From NCBI GenBank assembly GCA_964629735.1, contig CAZVQX010000003.1, forward strand, positions 6,387 to 70,386: a stretch of DNA of 64,000 bases. The letters are read 5' to 3'. Below, piece after piece: positions 812-49,030 of the stretch. The notes beneath the pieces are model-generated. The model was not told the DNA's origin. It saw only the letters and a list, made by a program, of their open reading frames with translations, and did not search any database. The translations under genes and the position numbers were made by a program. Source of the DNA: an uncultured Muribaculaceae bacterium (lineage in GTDB: Bacteria; Bacillota_I; Bacilli_A; RF39; UBA660). Position 1 is the first letter of the stretch; every line of letters begins with the position of its first letter.

Positions 812-1135
812 ATGTATCAAGATAGAATTGTTCTAACTGTAAAAGATATATTAGAAAAAGAATTTAAAATTGATACTAGAGGTTTTCGTCCTCAAGAAGT
901 TGATAAATTTCTGGATATTATTATTAGGGATTATGAAGAATTTATATCAATTATAAGAGAACAGGAATTAGAAAAAAAAGAATTAATCGATGATAATATT
1001 AGATTAAAACAAGAAATCCGTTCACTAAAAATGAAATTGGATATCGTTAAAGATAATACAACTGAAATTAGTAGTGCTGATTTACTAAAGAGATTATCTA
1101 ATTTAGAAAAAATAATTTATGGTCGAGATGAATAA
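812..1135 (+). CDS. gpsB: Cell cycle protein GpsB (DivIVA-domain)
   Basis: 107 aa with an N-terminal DivIVA motif (LTVKDILEKEFK..RGF..EVDKFLD) followed by a coiled coil. rnpB lies immediately downstream, as in Bacillus. Confidence 0.85.
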   Translation: MYQDRIVLTVKDILEKEFKIDTRGFRPQEVDKFLDIIIRDYEEFISIIREQELEKKELIDDNIRLKQEIRSLKMKLDIVKDNTTEISSADLLKRLSNLEKIIYGRDE

Positions 1136-1490
1136 TATTTTGACAAACGCTGCATTTTTATAATGTAGAGGAAAGTCCATGCTCGCACTGTCTGAAATGA
1201 CAGTAGTGTTCGTGCACAGGGAAAAAATAACCTGTGGTAGCATTTGCTAACGGCGCCAAAATAACCTAAGTCTTTGGATATGGTTAGATTTGGCATAAAG
1301 TGCCATAGTGACGATGTAGTTTAGAAATAAACTAAGTGGAACGGGTAAACCCCACGAGCGAGAAACCCAAATTATGGTAGGGGAACCTAATAAAGGGAAA
1401 AAACAACTCTTTATAGGATGGTTGAAAAATCATAGATAGATGTTTGTCGCCTAGTAATAGGAACAGAACATGGCTTATAAAATATTATTT
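1131..1490 (+). ncRNA. rnpB: RNase P RNA, type B
   Basis: AGAGGAAAGTCCATGCTCGCAC (P4 5' strand), CCTAAGTCTTTGGATATGG, AAAGTGCCATAGTGACGA and GTGGAACGGGTAAACCCCACGAGCGAGAAACCCAAATTATGGTAGGGGAACC all match Bacillus rnpB almost base for base. P1 pairs AATAATATTT (1131-1140) with AAATATTATT (1480-1489). Confidence 0.85.
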
Positions 1491-5511: not shown

Positions 5512-5736
5512 CTAATAATATCTACGGTAACCATAGTATGGTGTATATGTAGGATATGGGTATGGATAAGGGTATGGGGATGGATAGTAATATGGACGGT
5601 TAAAATATGGGGAAATTAATGCGCCGGTTAAACCACCTAATAAAAAAGGCCCAGCAAATCCAGCACCTAAAAAGATGCGGTCATCTTGATCATAGTAAGG
5701 TGATTTGGGATAATTTCCACTTAAATTATTATACAT
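5512..5736 (-). CDS. Small Tyr/Pro-rich low-complexity protein (candidate spore coat protein)
   Basis: 74 aa ending in the YPYPYPYPTYTPYYGYRRYY repeat, with a Gly-rich hydrophobic middle. RBS GAGGAG. Confidence 0.45.
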   Translation of the reverse strand: MYNNLSGNYPKSPYYDQDDRIFLGAGFAGPFLLGGLTGALISPYFNRPYYYPSPYPYPYPYPTYTPYYGYRRYY

Positions 5737-10100: not shown

Positions 10101-10991
10101 ATGATGAAAAGAAACCCTAATGCATTTACTTTAGTTGAATTACTGGCGGTTATAATTATATTAGGTATGCTTGCACTTGTTATAGTACCAGTTGTGGATA
10201 GAGTAAATGAAAGAGCACGTGAGGAGTTATACACTGTTCAAAAGGGTAATATTGTAGAGGCCGCTAAAAATTGGGGCGCAAAAAATTTTATGTTGTTACC
10301 TGATAAAGAAGGAGAAATTATTACAATTACGATAGGACAATTAAAGTTGAGTAGTTTTTTAGATAAGGATATTACTAATCCCCGAACTAAAAAAAAATTT
10401 CCTAATGATATGGAACTAACGATAACTCGTCGTGGTAATAATTATGATTATGAATTATTAGAAAATACAGGCACTGATGAGGGGGATATATATCAGGATT
10501 CGCCAGTAATTATATTAAATGGTTTAGCACATGAGATATCGGAAATACATTCAACCTATGTTGATAAAGGGATAATTGCTAAAGCACCAACTGGTTCACT
10601 TTTAGATAATTATACAACTGTAATTAAGTCAAATAATATAATTGTTGATAAAGTCGACACCACAAAATTTGTACAGTATAAAATTACTTATACTGTAGAA
10701 TTTGAAGGAAAAACAACAGCTGCAATTAGAACTGTTACCGTAAAGGATACAATTCCACCTATATTAAATATACCAGGGAATATTGAGTTAACAGTTGATG
10801 AAGTTGCAACTTTTGATCCAATGTTAGGTGTTAGTATGTCGGATAATAGTTTAAAAATACCTAGTGTTTCAGTTTCTGGAACGATAAGCAAAATAAAAGG
10901 TGATTATACTTTAACATATACGGCAACTGATGAAAGTGGAAATTCTACTACCAAATCGAGAATTATCCATGTTTATAATTCACCACAATAA
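10101..10991 (+). CDS. Prepilin-type N-terminal domain protein with C-terminal DUF5011-like Ig domain(s)
   Basis: N-terminus NAFTLVELLAVIIILGMLALV is a type IV pilin cleavage/methylation motif, but with Ala at -1 instead of Gly. C-terminal repeats such as ITYTVEFEGKTTAAIRTVTV and GDYTLTYTATDESGNSTTKSRIIHV are of the same type as in the 60824 protein. Confidence 0.7.
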   Translation: MMKRNPNAFTLVELLAVIIILGMLALVIVPVVDRVNERAREELYTVQKGNIVEAAKNWGAKNFMLLPDKEGEIITITIGQLKLSSFLDKDITNPRTKKKFPNDMELTITRRGNNYDYELLENTGTDEGDIYQDSPVIILNGLAHEISEIHSTYVDKGIIAKAPTGSLLDNYTTVIKSNNIIVDKVDTTKFVQYKITYTVEFEGKTTAAIRTVTVKDTIPPILNIPGNIELTVDEVATFDPMLGVSMSDNSLKIPSVSVSGTISKIKGDYTLTYTATDESGNSTTKSRIIHVYNSPQ

Positions 10992-22819: not shown

Positions 22820-23149
22820 TTATATTATTTGAAAGTCTGAATTGTTAAAATTGTTTTTATAAGGTTGTTTTGTTGTATTCATCATATTTTCTAAACTATT
22901 AATACGCCTTTCAATATTTTCAAGACGACGATTTAGATTATTAACTTCTTGTTGTAACATATATAATTGATCATTTTTGGCAATAGACTGACTTGTTGTT
23001 TGTGGCCCCATCATCTGTTGCCCGGGCATCATTGTTTGTGGCCCCATCATCGGTTGCCCGGTTATCATTGGCTGCGTTCCCATCATCGGTTGCCCCATTC
23101 CTTGATATATTGGATATGGTGGCATTCCATAGTTTCGATCATTTTTCAA
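22820..23149 (-). CDS. Met/Gln/Pro-rich repeat protein with a C-terminal coiled coil
   Basis: Four or five GQPMMG(P/T)Q(T/P)M repeats followed by a heptad region NNLNRRLENIERRINSLEN. Confidence 0.45.
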   Translation of the reverse strand: MKNDRNYGMPPYPIYQGMGQPMMGTQPMITGQPMMGPQTMMPGQQMMGPQTTSQSIAKNDQLYMLQQEVNNLNRRLENIERRINSLENMMNTTKQPYKNNFNNSDFQII

Positions 23150-43635: not shown

Positions 43636-44901
43636 ATGGCGAGAGGTTTAAAGATACCAAAGCGCAAAAAAGATTCAATTACAGAAAAAATCAAAAAATA
43701 TGATAAACCAAAATATGTTTATATTCCCCTTATTTGTCAAAATGATACGAATATAACAGTTTTAGTAAAACAAGGTGATTATGTTTGTAAAGGAGATGTT
43801 ATTGCTAGAAGAAGAGGACATTTTAAAGTTCCTATTCATGCCAGTGTTAGTGGTAAAGTAATATCATTTGAAGAAAAATTATATATAACTGGGCAAGAAG
43901 TAAAATGTGTTGTTATTGAGAATGATTTTAAAGAACTTGTATCAACCAATTTTGAAGTTCCTAAACAAATTAATCATTATACGAAAGAAGAGTTTATAAA
44001 TATAATTAAAGATTCTGGGATTGTTGGTTTGGGCGGTGGTGGATTTCCAACATATGCTAAATATGAAACTAATGACAAAATTAATACATTAATTATTAAT
44101 GCCCTTGAATGTGAACCATATATAACTGCTGATTATATGTTGATTAAAGAAAAGTGCGAAGAAATATTAGAGGCAATAGACGCTGTTTTGAATATTAATG
44201 ATATTCCTGAAGCTATTATTGCTGTTAATAAAAAAAACACAGAAGTTATTGAAATTTTTAATACTTTTATTGGTACTTATATTAAAATTAAATTAGTCCC
44301 TGTCCCTAATATTTATCCAATGGGGTGGGAGAGATCATTAATAAAACAGGTGAAAGGTGTAACTTATAATAAAATACCGATTGAAAAGGGAATTGTTGTT
44401 AATAATGTTTCGACAATGTATGCGATATATGAAGCACTAAAATATGGTAAACCAATGATTGAACGAATTATGACAATTACTGGCGATATGATCAAAGAAC
44501 CACAAAATATTTTAATAAAGGTTGGAACACCGGTTAAAGAAATAATTAATTCAATTGGTGGTTATCAAGAGGGTGACGTAATTAGTCTTATTGCTGGCGG
44601 CCCCATGATGGGGGTTGCAGTTCCTTCGGATGAATTAATTACAAGTTCAAATTTGTTAGGAATTGTATTAATGTCATATGTAAGCGATGAACCGCCGACA
44701 GAATGTTTACGATGTGGTAAATGTGTTGAAGTATGTCCGGCTAAACTTTCTCCAGTTTTAATAATGGACAATTTTCAAGATAGTGACAAATTAACTGATC
44801 TTCGGCCTAAAAATTGTGTTGAATGTGGTCTCTGTTCGTATATTTGCCCAGCCAAAATAAGAGTTAGAGAATTTGTTATTCGCGCTAAAGAAAAGGTGTA
44901 A
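43636..44901 (+). CDS. rnfC: Rnf complex subunit C
   Basis: Two 4Fe-4S motifs (CLRCGKCVEVCP and CVECGLCSYICP). Start at MARGLK after RBS GGAGGGG. Confidence 0.9.
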   Translation: MARGLKIPKRKKDSITEKIKKYDKPKYVYIPLICQNDTNITVLVKQGDYVCKGDVIARRRGHFKVPIHASVSGKVISFEEKLYITGQEVKCVVIENDFKELVSTNFEVPKQINHYTKEEFINIIKDSGIVGLGGGGFPTYAKYETNDKINTLIINALECEPYITADYMLIKEKCEEILEAIDAVLNINDIPEAIIAVNKKNTEVIEIFNTFIGTYIKIKLVPVPNIYPMGWERSLIKQVKGVTYNKIPIEKGIVVNNVSTMYAIYEALKYGKPMIERIMTITGDMIKEPQNILIKVGTPVKEIINSIGGYQEGDVISLIAGGPMMGVAVPSDELITSSNLLGIVLMSYVSDEPPTECLRCGKCVEVCPAKLSPVLIMDNFQDSDKLTDLRPKNCVECGLCSYICPAKIRVREFVIRAKEKV

Positions 44902-44912
44902 AAAGGAGGCAT

Positions 44913-46346
44913 ATGATGAAAATTATGAAAGTTGAAGTAGGTCCTTATATAAAAGATAAAAATAATACTAATAAAATAATGAAACATTTACTAATCTCAT
45001 TATTACCTATTATTGTATTTAGTTTTATAAAAAATGGTGTTATTCCTTATAATAAAGGTTATATCAGTTTTTTTGAAATGTTTTATCCATTAATTTTTAT
45101 TATTACTGGTACAATTTCTACATTCTTAATTGAACTGTTGTATGCAAGATTTATTCTTTCTAAACAAAAAGCTCAATTAAAAAAATATATGATGTCATCT
45201 CACTCTATTTTTCCCGGACTTTTTCTTTCTTTGATTTTACCAATAAATACACCAATATTAGTTTTAATAATGGGCTCATTTATTGCCATTGTAGTTGGTA
45301 AAATGTTGTTTGGCGGATTTGGTAATAATGTATTTAATCCGGCTTTAATTGGATGTTTGTTTATATTATTAATATATGGTCCAATGATTGCTGGTCATGG
45401 TGGCTATTTAAATAAAATGGAAATTTCAACAACTAGTGCAACACCACTATCTAATATTTCATCAGTTGAAGGAATTGGTAGTTATGATAGTTTAGTAAAA
45501 CCGTATGGTAGTTTGTTAAATTTTGGGGTTGGAACAATCCCAGGTGCAATTGGTGAAACTAGTGCAATATTATGCTTAATTAGTTTAATATATCTTTTAA
45601 TTTTTCAAGTTATAAAATGGCCTATTCCAATAATTTATATTGGTACCGTTTTTGGAATGACTTATATGATTGGTAGCTTAAATGGATTATCGATTTGGTA
45701 TCCACTTTTTCAAGTTATGAGTGGTGGTTTGATGTTTGGGGCGGTTTTTATGGCAACCGATCCGGTAACAAGTCCTACAACTCCAATTGGTCAAATATTA
45801 TATGGCTTATTTTTAGGAATATTAACGGTGACAATAAGATATTTGACTTCATATCCAGAAGGCGTTTTAACTAGTATCTTAACTTTGAATATGTTTGTTT
45901 TTATTTTTGATAAGATTGGTTCAAAAGCTAGATTTAATTTTAATAAAGCAGTATTGCATTTTATTGTAGCATGGGTTTTAATTTTAGGCCTTAGTATATA
46001 TATCGGTAATAGTTATAAGAAAAATAATAATCAAAATGATAATAACTTTAAACTTGTATCGGTTGATGAAATAAATAAACAAACAGTATATGTTGTGCAA
46101 CAAAAAGCTTTTAGTGGTAATATTGAGGCTAGAATAATTTTTGAAAATAATAATATTCAAAGTATTGATATTATAAATGTTAATGATGATTATTATCCCA
46201 AAATTGCAAAAGTTAATTTTATAGATATTTTACTTAATAATCAAAAAGAAATTGAAGACGTTGATACCGTTAGTGGTGCTACAATTACATCGTCAGCTAT
46301 TAAAAATATGATCATTAATACAATGAGAGAACACGGAGTGCGATAA
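44913..46346 (+). CDS. rnfD: RnfD fused to an RnfG-like FMN-binding domain
   Basis: RnfD core with FMATDPVTSP. An extra TM is followed by VDTVSGATITSSAI, the FMN_bind covalent-flavin motif of RnfG. 477 aa versus about 320 for RnfD alone. Confidence 0.85.
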   Translation: MMKIMKVEVGPYIKDKNNTNKIMKHLLISLLPIIVFSFIKNGVIPYNKGYISFFEMFYPLIFIITGTISTFLIELLYARFILSKQKAQLKKYMMSSHSIFPGLFLSLILPINTPILVLIMGSFIAIVVGKMLFGGFGNNVFNPALIGCLFILLIYGPMIAGHGGYLNKMEISTTSATPLSNISSVEGIGSYDSLVKPYGSLLNFGVGTIPGAIGETSAILCLISLIYLLIFQVIKWPIPIIYIGTVFGMTYMIGSLNGLSIWYPLFQVMSGGLMFGAVFMATDPVTSPTTPIGQILYGLFLGILTVTIRYLTSYPEGVLTSILTLNMFVFIFDKIGSKARFNFNKAVLHFIVAWVLILGLSIYIGNSYKKNNNQNDNNFKLVSVDEINKQTVYVVQQKAFSGNIEARIIFENNNIQSIDIINVNDDYYPKIAKVNFIDILLNNQKEIEDVDTVSGATITSSAIKNMIINTMREHGVR

Positions 46347-46347
46347 T

Positions 46348-46440
46348 ATGAAAAGTAAAATAAAAAGTATCTTAGTGCTTACTTTAACAGCTTTAATATG
46401 TGCAATAATAATATATTATGTGTTTAAAATAATTAGTTAG
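46348..46440 (+). CDS. Unannotated 30-aa single-TM micro-ORF between rnfD/G and rnfE
   Basis: MKSKIKSILVLTLTALICAIIIYYVFKIIS. RBS GGAG 9 nt upstream. Could be a remnant of the rnfG N-terminal anchor. Confidence 0.35.
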   Translation: MKSKIKSILVLTLTALICAIIIYYVFKIIS

Positions 46441-46452
46441 AGGGGAGTAAAA

Positions 46453-47088
46453 ATGAAGACAATAAAAAATGGAATAATAGATGAAAATCCAACCTTAGTT
46501 TTAATGTTAGGTTTATGTCCAACATTAGCGGTTACTAACAACTTTGAGAGTGCATATATTATGGGAATATGTGTTTTATTAGTTTTATTATTTTCTAACT
46601 TCACTGTTTCTATTATAAAAAAATTAATCCCAGAAAATGTTAGAATACCGGTTTACATAATAATAATTGCTACTTTTGTAACAAGTGTCGAAATGTTATT
46701 ACAAAAATATGCTCCACCAATTCATGAGATATTAGGTATATATTTACCACTCATTACTGTTAATTGTATTGTTTTGGGAAGAGCGATTGCTGTTGCATCA
46801 AAAGAAAAGATTGGAAAAAGTATATTAGATGCAATAGGTATTGGGTTAGGGTTTACCCTTTCATTATCAATGATTGGTTTAGTGCGAGAAGTCCTTGGTA
46901 ATAATACTATTACTTTAATGAATGGTATCAGCCCATTAACTGGATATAAGGCTGTTTATCAAATATTTCCTACTACTGATTATTTTCCAATTGATTTTTT
47001 TCTAAAACCAGCTGGTGCATTTTTAACCCTTGGTTTATTCCTAGCTTTATTTAATTTTATTAAAGAAAAAAGGGGTGAACGAAAATGA
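46453..47088 (+). CDS. rnfE: Rnf complex subunit E
   Basis: NPTLVLMLGLCPTLAVT N-terminus, six TMs. Confidence 0.9.
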   Translation: MKTIKNGIIDENPTLVLMLGLCPTLAVTNNFESAYIMGICVLLVLLFSNFTVSIIKKLIPENVRIPVYIIIIATFVTSVEMLLQKYAPPIHEILGIYLPLITVNCIVLGRAIAVASKEKIGKSILDAIGIGLGFTLSLSMIGLVREVLGNNTITLMNGISPLTGYKAVYQIFPTTDYFPIDFFLKPAGAFLTLGLFLALFNFIKEKRGERK

Positions 47089-47651
47089 ATTTATTTAATT
47101 TATTTATAACTAGTGTTTTAACTAATAATATTATTTTAACTAAATTTTTAGGTATTTGTCCTTTTATTGGCGTTTCTAAAAAAGAAGAAAGTGCGATTGG
47201 GATGGGGTTAGCAGTAACAACTGTTTTAGCTATATCAAGTATTATTAATTATTTAATTTATCATTATATTTTAGAACCAACGAATACGACCTATTTACGT
47301 ACCTTAATATTTATTTTAGTAATTGCCTCATTAACACAAATAATAGAAATAATTGTAAAAAGTAAATTTCCAAAAATTCATCAGGCCTTAGGTATATTTT
47401 TACCATTAATAGCTACTAATTGTGCTATTTTAGGAATTAATTTATTGAACATAAATAATAGTTATAACTTTTTAGAGATGATTACTTTTACATTAGGTAG
47501 TGGAATCGGCTTTGCGCTAGTAATCTATATATTTTCAACGATTCGTGAAAGATTGGAAAAAATAAATATTCCAAAATGTTTTAAAGGAACACCAATTGCA
47601 CTAATAACAGCCGCTATCATGGCGCTTGTATTTGGTAGGTATTTTGGCTAA
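47085..47651 (+). CDS. rnfA: Rnf complex subunit A
   Basis: GICPFIGVS motif, six TMs. Confidence 0.9.
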   Translation: MNLFNLFITSVLTNNIILTKFLGICPFIGVSKKEESAIGMGLAVTTVLAISSIINYLIYHYILEPTNTTYLRTLIFILVIASLTQIIEIIVKSKFPKIHQALGIFLPLIATNCAILGINLLNINNSYNFLEMITFTLGSGIGFALVIYIFSTIRERLEKINIPKCFKGTPIALITAAIMALVFGRYFG

Positions 47652-47758
47652 TGGCTTATATTATATTAATAATTTTGATAGTTTTAACTATATATTTATA
47701 TAGTAAAAATAATAATTATAAAAATTGTGGTTCTTGTAAGGGGTGTAATAAATGTTAG
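47651..47758 (+). CDS. Unannotated 35-aa TM plus Cys4 micro-ORF, translationally coupled to rnfA
   Basis: MAYIILIILIVLTIYLYSKNNNYKNCGSCKGCNKC. ATG overlaps the rnfA stop (TAATG). Confidence 0.3.
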   Translation: MAYIILIILIVLTIYLYSKNNNYKNCGSCKGCNKC

Positions 47759-48024
47759 ATATATTAATAGTTACAGCTATTGCTTTCTTTTTAAGTGTTT
47801 TATTAGTAATAGTGGAATCTAAATTTAAAAGTGATGATAAACAAGAAATCGATTATGAAAAATATTTACCTGGCTATAATTGTGGTACTTGTGGTTTTAA
47901 TACTTGTCGAGGGATGAGTGACGCAATGTTAAAAAATCCTTTAAATTATAAAAAATGCCGACCACTACGGGGAGATAAATTAAAAGAGATGGAAGCTTAT
48001 TTAAGACTAAAAAAAATCATTTAA
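47752..48024 (+). CDS. rnfB: Rnf complex subunit B, N-terminal domain only (no ferredoxin domains)
   Basis: TM followed by NCGTCGFNTC, but only 90 aa; the usual C-terminal 2x[4Fe-4S] region is absent. Confidence 0.7.
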   Translation: MLDILIVTAIAFFLSVLLVIVESKFKSDDKQEIDYEKYLPGYNCGTCGFNTCRGMSDAMLKNPLNYKKCRPLRGDKLKEMEAYLRLKKII

Positions 48025-48059
48025 AAAATTATTTTATGTGTTTAGTAAAGGAGTATGAA

Positions 48060-48764
48060 ATGAAGAAGTTCAAAGTTTTAATAACAATTTGGGGAATGGC
48101 ATTATTACTAACCGGATGTGTTGGTGCAACTATAGATATAAATATTAAAAATGATGATACCGGTAAAATGATATTTATGGTTGGATATGAAGAAGAGTAT
48201 TTAAAAACACTTGAAAAGCAAGAAGATAGTGAAGGTATTGATTTTAATTCAAATACAGAGTTAACAATTCCTTTTAAAGATGTTGAGAGTGATAAAATAA
48301 CTTTCAATAAAAATGATTATACTTATGTGGGTGAAAAAGTAGAAATCGATTTTAATTCCCTTGATGAATTAAATGAGAGACTTTATGAAATTTTCAACTC
48401 TGATGAAGATACTGAAAATAATATGGAAACAATAACTTTTAATCGCGATGGTAATGAGGTTAATGTTTTTCAAAAAGGAAATGAAAATAATTATGAACAG
48501 AGTAAAATGTTTTTAAATTATGTAGATTATACTATAAGTTTTAAAATAGATGGTAAAATAATATCTAATAATGCTGATAAATATGACGAAAAAACCAATA
48601 CATTAGAGTGGAATATAAAAACAATCTTAAAAGAAGGTATTCAATTTAAATATAAAACTTCTAATAATTTAGAAGTTAAACCAACATATATAATTATTGC
48701 TTCAATTCTCATAGTTGCTTCAGGTATTGGTTTTGTTTTATATTTAAAAAGAAAACATGATTAA
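48060..48764 (+). CDS. Lipoprotein with C-terminal TM, hypothetical
   Basis: Lipobox LLLTGC; C-terminal TM. Start at MKKFKVL after RBS AAGGAG. Confidence 0.6.
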   Translation: MKKFKVLITIWGMALLLTGCVGATIDINIKNDDTGKMIFMVGYEEEYLKTLEKQEDSEGIDFNSNTELTIPFKDVESDKITFNKNDYTYVGEKVEIDFNSLDELNERLYEIFNSDEDTENNMETITFNRDGNEVNVFQKGNENNYEQSKMFLNYVDYTISFKIDGKIISNNADKYDEKTNTLEWNIKTILKEGIQFKYKTSNNLEVKPTYIIIASILIVASGIGFVLYLKRKHD

Positions 48765-48819
48765 TAAATATATTTGTTTTTTATCAAATAATTTGTTATA
48801 ATTTACTTAATATTAAAAA

Positions 48820-49030
48820 ACGGTGACGAAAGATTAGTAACAAAAGTAATTATTTATAGAGAGTTAGTGTATGGTGAAAACTAATAATAATCTTTTGCGA
48901 ATTCACTTTCTAGTTTTATATTATATATAACGGTAACGCGTTTTAGTTATTTGAGAGTATAGACATTCTATAAATTAAGGTGGTAACGCGATCATTCGTC
49001 CTTAAGCTAAGAATGTTTTTTTATTAGGAG
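48820..49030 (+). promoter_or_regulatory. T-box riboswitch leader (Phe specifier UUC) of pheST
   Basis: T-box sequence AATTAAGGTGGTAACGCG. Stem I has an AGAGAG/AGTGTATGGTG distal platform and GAATTCA in the specifier loop. Confidence 0.8.

Follow-up and report, generated by a model that had tools for sequence, protein, structure and literature searches.

How would electrons enter an Rnf complex whose RnfB has no ferredoxin-acceptor domain and whose operon contains no complete rnfG? This question is raised by an rnf operon in the stretch of DNA analysed here, 64 kilobases (kb) of contig CAZVQX010000003.1 from an uncultured bacterium (hereafter the window). The first-pass annotation had described the operon as rnfC, rnfD, rnfE, rnfA and rnfB without rnfG, with RnfD fused to an FMN_bind domain and with an RnfB of only 90 amino acids (aa). 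Both the fusion and the shortening of RnfB proved to be real features that are conserved and held by purifying selection. The gene order and the absence of a full rnfG stood up as well, but that annotation had missed two micro-genes, orfX and orfY, the first of which is a 30-aa open reading frame (ORF) that resembles an RnfG anchor and follows the fusion.

The operon and its conservation

All genes of the operon are co-directional, and all coordinates of window features are positions within the window. The seven genes are as follows.

rnfC: 43636..44901 (+), 421 aa; RnfC_N, Complex1_51K, SLBB and Fer4_7 by Pfam
rnfD::FMN_bind fusion: 44913..46346 (+), 477 aa; PF03116 at aa 7-341 (E 5e-74) and PF04205 at aa 400-469 (E 2e-8)
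orfX: 46348..46440 (+), 30 aa (MKSKIKSILVLTLTALICAIIIYYVFKIIS); single-pass membrane micro-protein
rnfE: 46453..47088 (+), 211 aa; TIGR01948 score 219.2, cut-off 213.4
rnfA: 47085..47651 (+), 188 aa; TIGR01943 score 241.7, cut-off 229.3
orfY: 47651..47758 (+), 35 aa (MAYIILIILIVLTIYLYSKNNNYKNCGSCKGCNKC); membrane helix and Cys-rich tail
mini-rnfB: 47752..48024 (+), 90 aa; PF04060 at aa 39-71 as sole domain, basic tail CRPLRGDKLKEME

The curated NCBIfam models for RnfC, RnfE and RnfA passed their cut-offs, RnfC with 361.8 bits (TIGR01945) against 245.95. This protein has the NuoF-like NADH module with flavin mononucleotide (FMN) that is expected of an RnfC (Complex1_51K E 6e-38), together with two [4Fe-4S] motifs of the form CxxCxxCxxxC (C357-C367 and C394-C404). 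RnfD matched PF03116 with 249.8 bits and retains the conserved Thr for covalent FMN (T177). Cys22 and Cys105 of RnfE and Cys25 and Cys113 of RnfA lie in conserved LGxCP and NC contexts and are the ligands of the predicted intramembrane [2Fe-2S] cluster, as in an Rnf complex. Two usual components were not found in their usual form. There is no separate RnfG made of an anchor helix and an FMN_bind domain, the FMN_bind domain with SGAT(457) being fused to RnfD instead, and RnfB consists of a helix and PF04060 without the C-terminal ferredoxin-acceptor domain, which carries 2-7 [4Fe-4S] clusters in all characterised RnfB proteins (PMC12174285). Judged from the sequences, the function of RnfG is probably kept in split form, with the FMN_bind domain on RnfD and an anchor-like helix encoded by the 30-aa ORF. 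All cofactor ligands of the path through RnfC, RnfD, the G-type domain, RnfA/RnfE and the RnfB shuttle are present and conserved.

The remaining NCBIfam models scored below their cut-offs: rnfD (TIGR01946) with 185.1 versus 207.05, rnfG (TIGR01947) with 19.6 versus 102, and rnfB (TIGR01944) with 39 versus 68.7. Because of these low scores, relatives carry public names such as 'FMN-binding protein' and '(Fe-S)-binding protein'. The same scores are what can be cited in favour of an assembly artefact or a decaying pseudo-operon, in which a frameshift would have made the fusion and truncated rnfB, a cause that the first-pass annotation had itself named as a possible refutation; nothing specific beyond them points in that direction. 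To set against this, we annotated loci by profile searches, 90 of them from genomes (from among the matches listed) and 17 from metagenomes. The identical fusion protein with the same neighbours was present on four independently assembled contigs (Logan assemblies), and diverged relatives with unrelated flanking genes had the same gene order and an RnfB of 82-97 aa. Across ~16 distinct loci with a fused RnfD, the RnfB ORF measured 81-110 aa wherever it was recovered, with locus L101 as the sole exception. In L101 (2617-3291, +) the mini-rnfB frame runs without a stop into a prepilin gene, which results in a 224-aa ORF with no ferredoxin domain; a sequencing error or a genuine read-through fusion would account for it. 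In 58 loci with an ordinary RnfD (310-340 aa), RnfB was 250-360 aa long.

The fused layout was kept in loci down to 42% identity, so that the suggestion to look for fusion and truncation in sister genomes was answered both by the four assemblies and by the diverged loci. With 61 RnfB homologues of 52-95 aa in which the Cys residues are invariant or near-invariant, with 105 of the 150 best cluster representatives at no more than 120 aa, and with the open frames and the ratios of non-synonymous to synonymous differences (pN/pS) reported below, these conservation data refute an artefactual origin, and we consider it exceedingly improbable. The relatives found were uncultured metagenome-assembled genomes (MAGs) from the gut, the rumen and comparable sources, with Bacilli or Firmicutes in their labels (such as 'Bacilli bacterium'); the Erysipelotrichia placement in the first-pass annotation found no confirmation in these labels.

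Fused RnfD, single-domain RnfB and two micro-genes

The extra transmembrane helix that the first-pass annotation had placed between the RnfD core and the FMN_bind domain was recovered in an AlphaFold2 (AF2) model of the 477-aa protein (predicted local distance difference test, pLDDT, 76.8). In this model a helix at aa 343-367 (nucleotides, nt, 45939-46013) is followed by a disordered stretch at aa 368-378 and by the beta/alpha FMN_bind fold at aa 379-474, which is consistent with a flexible tether of the FMN_bind domain on the outer face. Both Pfam domains were present in all 120 fusion matches listed (53-100% identity). The window protein has one FMN_bind domain, and some relatives have 2 or 3 in tandem on RnfD.

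The flavin site of the RnfD core had been assigned to FMATDPVTSP (aa 279-288), and this assignment did not hold: that motif is a conserved RnfD motif, and the flavinylated residue is predicted to be Thr177 in TSAT (nt 45441-45443). Thr177 is invariant in 33 relatives and aligns with T236 in SGAT of Vibrio cholerae NqrB, which we take to be the FMN attachment residue of that protein. The flavinylation motif of the FMN_bind domain reads DTVSGAT(457)ITSS, with Thr457 at nt 46281-46283. Around Thr177 the window RnfD (aa 170-178, 45420-45445) reads MEI-STTSAT, and at least 90% of relatives read E(L/I)D(A/T)xT(S/T)AT. A hidden Markov model (HMM) of 29 ordinary RnfG proteins matched the fused proteins over the FMN_bind part only (HMM ~65-200) and never over the linker helix, and comparison of this helix with RnfG N-termini by hhalign gave a probability of 0.8%. 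In locus L018, the extra helix is already present at the C-terminus of RnfD, which has no FMN_bind domain there.

RnfB proved to be as short as had been claimed, with an N-terminal membrane helix, PF04060 as its only domain and four Cys residues (C44, C47, C52 and C69) for one [4Fe-4S] cluster. The comparison with characterised RnfB proteins that the first-pass annotation had proposed placed its profile within residues 6-75 only: residues 6-74 of 8AHX_B (Azotobacter vinelandii, full length 174 aa), 10-67 of 7ZC6_B (Clostridium tetanomorphum, 274 aa) and 9-75 of 9ERI_B (Acetobacterium woodii, 333 aa). By this alignment, mini-RnfB corresponds to the membrane helix and the small [4Fe-4S] domain of the solved RnfB structures. 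Its AF2 model had a pLDDT of 91.2, and the best structural match of the soluble part was 2YCL_A (prob 0.99, root-mean-square deviation 1.8 Å over ~50 columns). All 61 homologues found through a word index fell in the size range given above, 60 of them at 80-95 aa, and the four Cys and the tail CRPLRGDKLKEMExY were invariant or nearly so in ~60 homologues. A profile search of 1.84 billion cluster representatives (50% identity) returned 1991 matches, and the 105 short proteins among the best 150 were matched over their full length. Two of the short proteins, from other lineages, belong to Rnf operons: the one in L113 goes with an unfused RnfD and an RnfG, as mini-RnfB also does in L018, and the one in L111 accompanies a fused RnfD and an intact RnfG. 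A fused RnfD and an intact RnfG occur in L019 too, where the contig ends and RnfB was not recovered. These four loci represent intermediate arrangements. Given the cluster counts and the L113 and L111 contexts, mini-RnfB is a broad, recurrent form of RnfB and no quirk of the fused operon.

Mini-RnfB and full-length RnfB also differ directly after the fourth Cys:

Mini RnfB (n=143): C-(R/K)-P-(L/I)-(R/K)-G-(D/E)-K; mean K/R in the next 12 aa 3.66; mean net charge +1.38
Full-length RnfB (n=58): C-P-V-G-G (CP(V/P)GG); mean K/R in the next 12 aa 0.88; mean net charge -0.12

The first-pass annotation had seen no remnant of the ferredoxin half downstream of rnfB. In agreement with this, a scan for the ferredoxin-type motif CxxCxxCxxxC in six frames of the whole 64-kb window found none beyond the two in RnfC, and a search reaching ~5 kb from the operon in 15 related loci likewise found only those of RnfC. 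In characterised RnfB proteins, it is the C-terminal domain that accepts ferredoxin, and the small [4Fe-4S] domain is a flexibly tethered shuttle that reduces the [2Fe-2S] cluster of RnfA/E (PMC12174285). Since the acceptor domain is missing here, a changed route of electron entry is implied, as had been proposed.

The ~100-nt gaps after the fused rnfD and after rnfA each contain one small ORF. The ATG of orfY overlaps the rnfA stop by 1 nt (TAATG) and its 3' end overlaps the rnfB start by 7 nt, and such start/stop overlaps indicate translational coupling; in diverged loci, the overlap of the orfY equivalent with the rnfA stop was always 1 or 4 nt. HMMs were built from the first copies found of each micro-ORF and then run over all annotated loci. 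They recovered orfX in every fused locus without a separate rnfG and orfY in at least 14 fused loci, and neither had a match in any of ~70 unfused loci. We determined pN/pS from protein-guided codon alignments of 12-13 diverged loci, with off-frame controls. Ungapped pN/pS values were dropped, the copies of the micro-ORFs being out of register and the synonymous sites saturated. The outcome was as follows.

orfX and orfY, annotated frame: in-frame stops 0; pN/pS 0.54 (orfX) and 0.57 (orfY)
orfX and orfY, other two frames: in-frame stops 26-80; pN/pS 0.8-1.45
mini-rnfB, annotated frame: in-frame stops 0; pN/pS 0.65

A profile search with orfY, for which a 43-aa copy was placed first, in a collection of 5.8 billion proteins yielded 12 clusters of 36-43 aa, and the two that were inspected lie between rnfA and mini-rnfB in fused operons. 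Because of the open frames, the pN/pS values and the database clusters in the same position, we conclude that orfX and orfY behave as genes. Annotation pipelines omit both in most of the loci examined; orfX was called in L005 and L006, and orfY in L108-L110. In L012 (6504-7073, +), a rumen MAG, a 189-aa ORF without known function lies between orfX and rnfE and overlaps both by a few nt.

Where might orfX have come from? The anchor helix of the RnfG HMM (positions 6-40) aligned with orfX over its full length (E 0.005-0.05 among 6127 ORFs). Outside its own family, the orfX HMM matched best to the N-terminal part of an authentic RnfG (L066, E 1.5e-4), and hhalign gave a probability of 93% for orfX versus RnfG N-termini. 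An RnfG origin is challenged by the anchor helix of mini-RnfB, which matched orfX equally well (hhalign 92%) and makes the origin ambiguous by sequence. However, orfX sits at the position of rnfG and the two are mutually exclusive: it is absent both from L018 and L113, with unfused RnfD and RnfG, and from L019 and L111, with fused RnfD and intact RnfG. This mutual exclusivity and the synteny tip the balance towards the RnfG anchor. orfX is thus probably the retained anchor helix of RnfG, which would mean that rnfG was split rather than merely fused. In the simplest history, RnfD would first have gained a C-terminal helix, one or more FMN_bind domains would then have been added onto this helix, and RnfG would have shed its own FMN_bind domain until the anchor helix alone remained.

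The products of orfY share an invariant core, CxxCxx(x)C, with a fourth Cys up- or downstream in most copies and 3-5 Cys in total. In the window, orfY consists of a helix and a CxxCxxC(xxC) tail, which is predicted to be cytoplasmic by the positive-inside rule. An analogous 57-aa ORF with a helix and four Cys occupies the rnfA-rnfB gap of L111, in a separate lineage. This analogue and 9 of 13 orfY copies gave weak matches to PF12669 (best E 0.0011), a family thought to bind iron (PMC8749426). A profile comparison of the hhalign type between orfY and the N-terminus of mini-RnfB gave a probability of 76%, a hint of an RnfB-derived origin that is too weak to claim.

Electron entry into the complex

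What do these features suggest about the working of the complex? The evidence tilts us, by a modest degree, towards a functional, lineage-specific Rnf ferredoxin (or flavodoxin):NAD+ ion pump, in which the donor would dock directly on the shuttle domain and orfY would serve as an iron-sulfur (Fe-S) accessory. The pump would be made of seven gene products (RnfC, RnfD::FMN_bind, the orfX product, RnfE, RnfA, the orfY product and mini-RnfB). The extracytoplasmic FMN shuttle, normally RnfG, would be tethered through a flexible linker to the new C-terminal helix of RnfD, and orfX would fill the structural place of the RnfG helix, kept because the complex needs a helix there for packing. Mini-RnfB would act as a flexible single-cluster domain that passes electrons to the [2Fe-2S] cluster of RnfA/E. 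The electrons would come from a soluble carrier of acidic character and low potential, ferredoxin or flavodoxin, docking directly on this domain with the help of the basic C(R/K)P(L/I)(R/K) patch that stands in place of CP(V/P)GG in all mini-RnfB proteins. Finally, orfY would set 3-5 Cys at the cytoplasmic membrane face beside RnfA and RnfB, and may have an accessory role with Fe or Fe-S: it could be a factor resembling NqrM that inserts the intramembrane cluster, or a small extra cluster site. NqrM is a small membrane protein for Fe-S maturation of the homologous cluster in the NADH:quinone oxidoreductase that translocates Na+ (NQR), according to a 2025 review (PMC12174285). A more specific proposal is that orfY is a new Fe-S micro-subunit or cluster-insertion factor of Rnf complexes with mini-RnfB, as the Rnf counterpart of NqrM or with one cluster to replace the lost ferredoxin domain, and that with the basic patch it forms a new electron-entry module, in which electrons would pass straight from a soluble ferredoxin or flavodoxin to the shuttle domain and the multi-cluster arm of RnfB would become dispensable. 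We put this forward tentatively, as a possibility that may well turn out wrong.

Several observations weigh against these interpretations. The PF12669 scores of orfY, 11-18 bits (best 18.3), lie below the gathering score of 27 and do not place it in that family, and neither Pfam nor NCBIfam gave orfY a match to NqrM/DUF539 with E up to 10. It is also absent from the mini-RnfB operons L014, L018 and L113, and would therefore be accessory and not obligatory. The basic patch of mini-RnfB is a correlation across sequences and no proof of docking. The Asp six residues upstream of the flavinylated Thr, present in at least 90% of relatives, is absent from the window RnfD. No cultured representative was found among the matches listed. 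The view of this genome is 64 kb wide, and a stand-alone polyferredoxin or other partner may be encoded beyond it.

Two other explanations for the reduced RnfB were weighed against the pump. The operon could serve as a conduit fed by NADH, in which electrons would pass outward from RnfC through RnfD and the fused FMN_bind domain to extracytosolic flavinylated reductases or other acceptors, and in which RnfB would be reduced because the ferredoxin arm had been de-emphasised. Such a route fits the relatives whose RnfD bears 2 or 3 FMN_bind domains in tandem, and Meheust et al. 2021 (PMC8238504) proposes that RNF complexes with multiple flavinylation pass electrons to alternative acceptors outside the cytosol. 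It also fits L111, where the neighbour of the mini-RnfB operon is a protein of 849 aa that combines two FMN_bind domains with FAD_binding_2. This protein is of the extracytosolic flavin-reductase type, and a MerR regulator lies between it and the operon (L111 7651-10200, +, and 6530-7270, -). The window fusion, however, has a single FMN_bind domain, the 64-kb window contains no further flavinylation motif and no FAD_binding_2 reductase, and no reductase adjoins the other fused loci that were inspected. Moreover, RnfA, RnfE and mini-RnfB keep all their cluster ligands under purifying selection, which is unexpected if this arm is dispensable. For the window operon we therefore regard an outward conduit as unlikely; with its single domain this operon makes a less plausible case for it than L111 or the relatives with two or three domains.

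Alternatively, the ferredoxin-acceptor module could have moved, so that a polyferredoxin or 2x[4Fe-4S] protein with its gene elsewhere in the genome binds mini-RnfB, possibly via orfY, and restores the canonical cluster chain. The 64-kb width of the genome view leaves room for such a gene, the basic patch could equally be the interface for a dedicated partner, and the CxxCxxC core of orfY has the classic pattern of three ligands to a [4Fe-4S] cluster. On the other hand, RnfC accounts for every ferredoxin-type motif in the window and in the ~5 kb around the operon in 15 related loci, and since the flanking genes vary there is no conserved neighbour that could take this part. We judge a relocated module to be distinctly unlikely, and prefer the pump with direct docking on mini-RnfB.

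Surrounding genes and comparison with known systems

A scan of the operon region for promoters and terminators gave counts equal to the shuffled expectation, and the operon boundaries were therefore drawn from gene spacing and from a T-box leader at 48814-49006 (+; 98 bits, above the gathering score), which lies immediately 5' of pheS/pheT and bounds the rnf-lipoprotein gene block on its downstream side. The gene 3' of rnfB (48057-48764, +) encodes a lipoprotein, as the first-pass annotation had it, with the lipobox LLLTGC and an LppM match of 25 bits, just below the cut-off of 27. In the window and the closest assemblies its start lies 33 nt past the rnfB stop (12 nt for a longer ORF at 48036). 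Because the distant loci L005, L007, L009, L108 and L110 carry unrelated genes 3' of rnfB, membership of the lipoprotein in the complex is unlikely.

Prepilin-type genes were found within 5 kb of rnf in 7 of 16 fused loci versus 0 of 73 unfused loci. This association is probably a lineage effect, because the window alone has two such genes in 64 kb. Locus L011 (3716-10276), on a complete 1.49-Mb chromosome (OW818670.1), has rnfC and a 612-aa rnfD::2xFMN_bind followed by two large pilin-like genes; orfX, rnfE, rnfA and rnfB are not within 5 kb, and the operon could be split or partly lost there. The other features of the window, which has a G+C content of 27%, are listed here.

1135-1482 (+): class B bacterial RNase P RNA of the Bacillota type, 310 bits, in partial overlap with an ORF listed at 1470-2000
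10101-10991 (+): prepilin-type gene, 296 aa
60824-64000 (+): pilin-like ORF of more than 1050 aa that continues past the window end, with a type IV prepilin N-terminus (KGFTLVELLAIIIIIG) and repeated immunoglobulin-like modules
5512-5736 (-) and 22820-23149 (-): low-complexity ORFs on the minus strand of an almost wholly plus-coding window, one of them Tyr/Pro-rich (PYPYPYPYPTYTPYYGY) and the other Met/Gln/Pro-rich with GQPMMG-like repeats

Genes for an anaerobic ribonucleotide reductase and for sporulation were also assigned in the window, by reading ORF translations only.

How does this operon relate to systems already described? Compared with the canonical RnfCDGEAB of C. tetanomorphum (7ZC6), A. 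vinelandii (8AHX) and A. woodii (9ERI), RnfC, the RnfD core, RnfE and RnfA are homologous and keep their ligands, and the gene order C-D-(G)-E-A-B is of the clostridial type. The window operon differs in that its RnfB is without the entire C-terminal ferredoxin-acceptor domain and has a basic motif in place of CP(V/P)GG, that its FMN_bind domain is attached to RnfD via a new helix and is not part of a separate RnfG, and that it adds orfX and orfY. The relatives with 2-3 tandem FMN_bind domains on the outer face are similar to the multi-flavinylated RnfG of Meheust et al. 2021 (PMC8238504); in the searched parts of that paper the multi-domain protein is described as RnfG, and an RnfD fusion, an anchor micro-ORF and a reduced RnfB are unmentioned. 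The soluble part of mini-RnfB and the N-terminal domain of the corrinoid iron-sulfur protein (2YCL_A) belong to the same family, PF04060, but the latter is part of a 442-aa soluble methyl-transfer protein with no membrane anchor and no ion pump.

Like NqrM (DUF539), orfY encodes a tiny single-helix membrane protein with conserved Cys, within the operon and near the [2Fe-2S] subunits. At half the size and with sequence similarity undetected, the likeness is an analogy only. PF12669 has the same build, with a membrane helix at the N-terminus followed by a short tail rich in Cys; the context of orfY, however, was rnfA/rnfB and not feoB in every case examined, and the family spacing Cx3-5Cx2-3Cx6-8C (PMC8749426) differs from the CxxCxxCxxC of orfY.

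Two related systems were considered for the locus and rejected. A Na+-NQR was discarded because no NqrF-like gene is present, the RnfC-type subunit still has both its FMN/NADH domain and its clusters (in NQR the equivalent NqrA is without cofactors), and the nqrA and nqrB models scored far below their cut-offs. In the two-subunit NQR/RNF-like system described by Meheust et al. 2021 (PMC8238504), an NqrB/RnfD domain is joined to a PF00175 NAD-binding domain in the cytosol, and the membrane domain lacks the flavinylated Thr. In the window the C-terminal fusion is FMN_bind and not PF00175, T177 is kept, and RnfC, RnfE, RnfA and RnfB are present. A full-text literature search found no account of an RnfD fused in this way, of an anchor helix left as a gene of its own, of the Cys-rich micro-gene or of an RnfB reduced to one domain.

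Many anaerobes have Rnf as their central pump for energy conservation, and because relatives of this operon carry generic names and its micro-ORFs are skipped by annotation, Rnf may be recognised too seldom when the metabolism of gut and rumen Bacilli is reconstructed. The apparently split RnfG offers a test of the structural versus the catalytic parts of RnfG, and orfY is a candidate for a factor that handles the intramembrane [2Fe-2S] cluster of Rnf. Structural and biochemical work to date has dealt with multi-cluster RnfB. If the complex described here is active, the ferredoxin-acceptor domain would not be required, and the operon would provide a minimal system for asking how ferredoxin docks.

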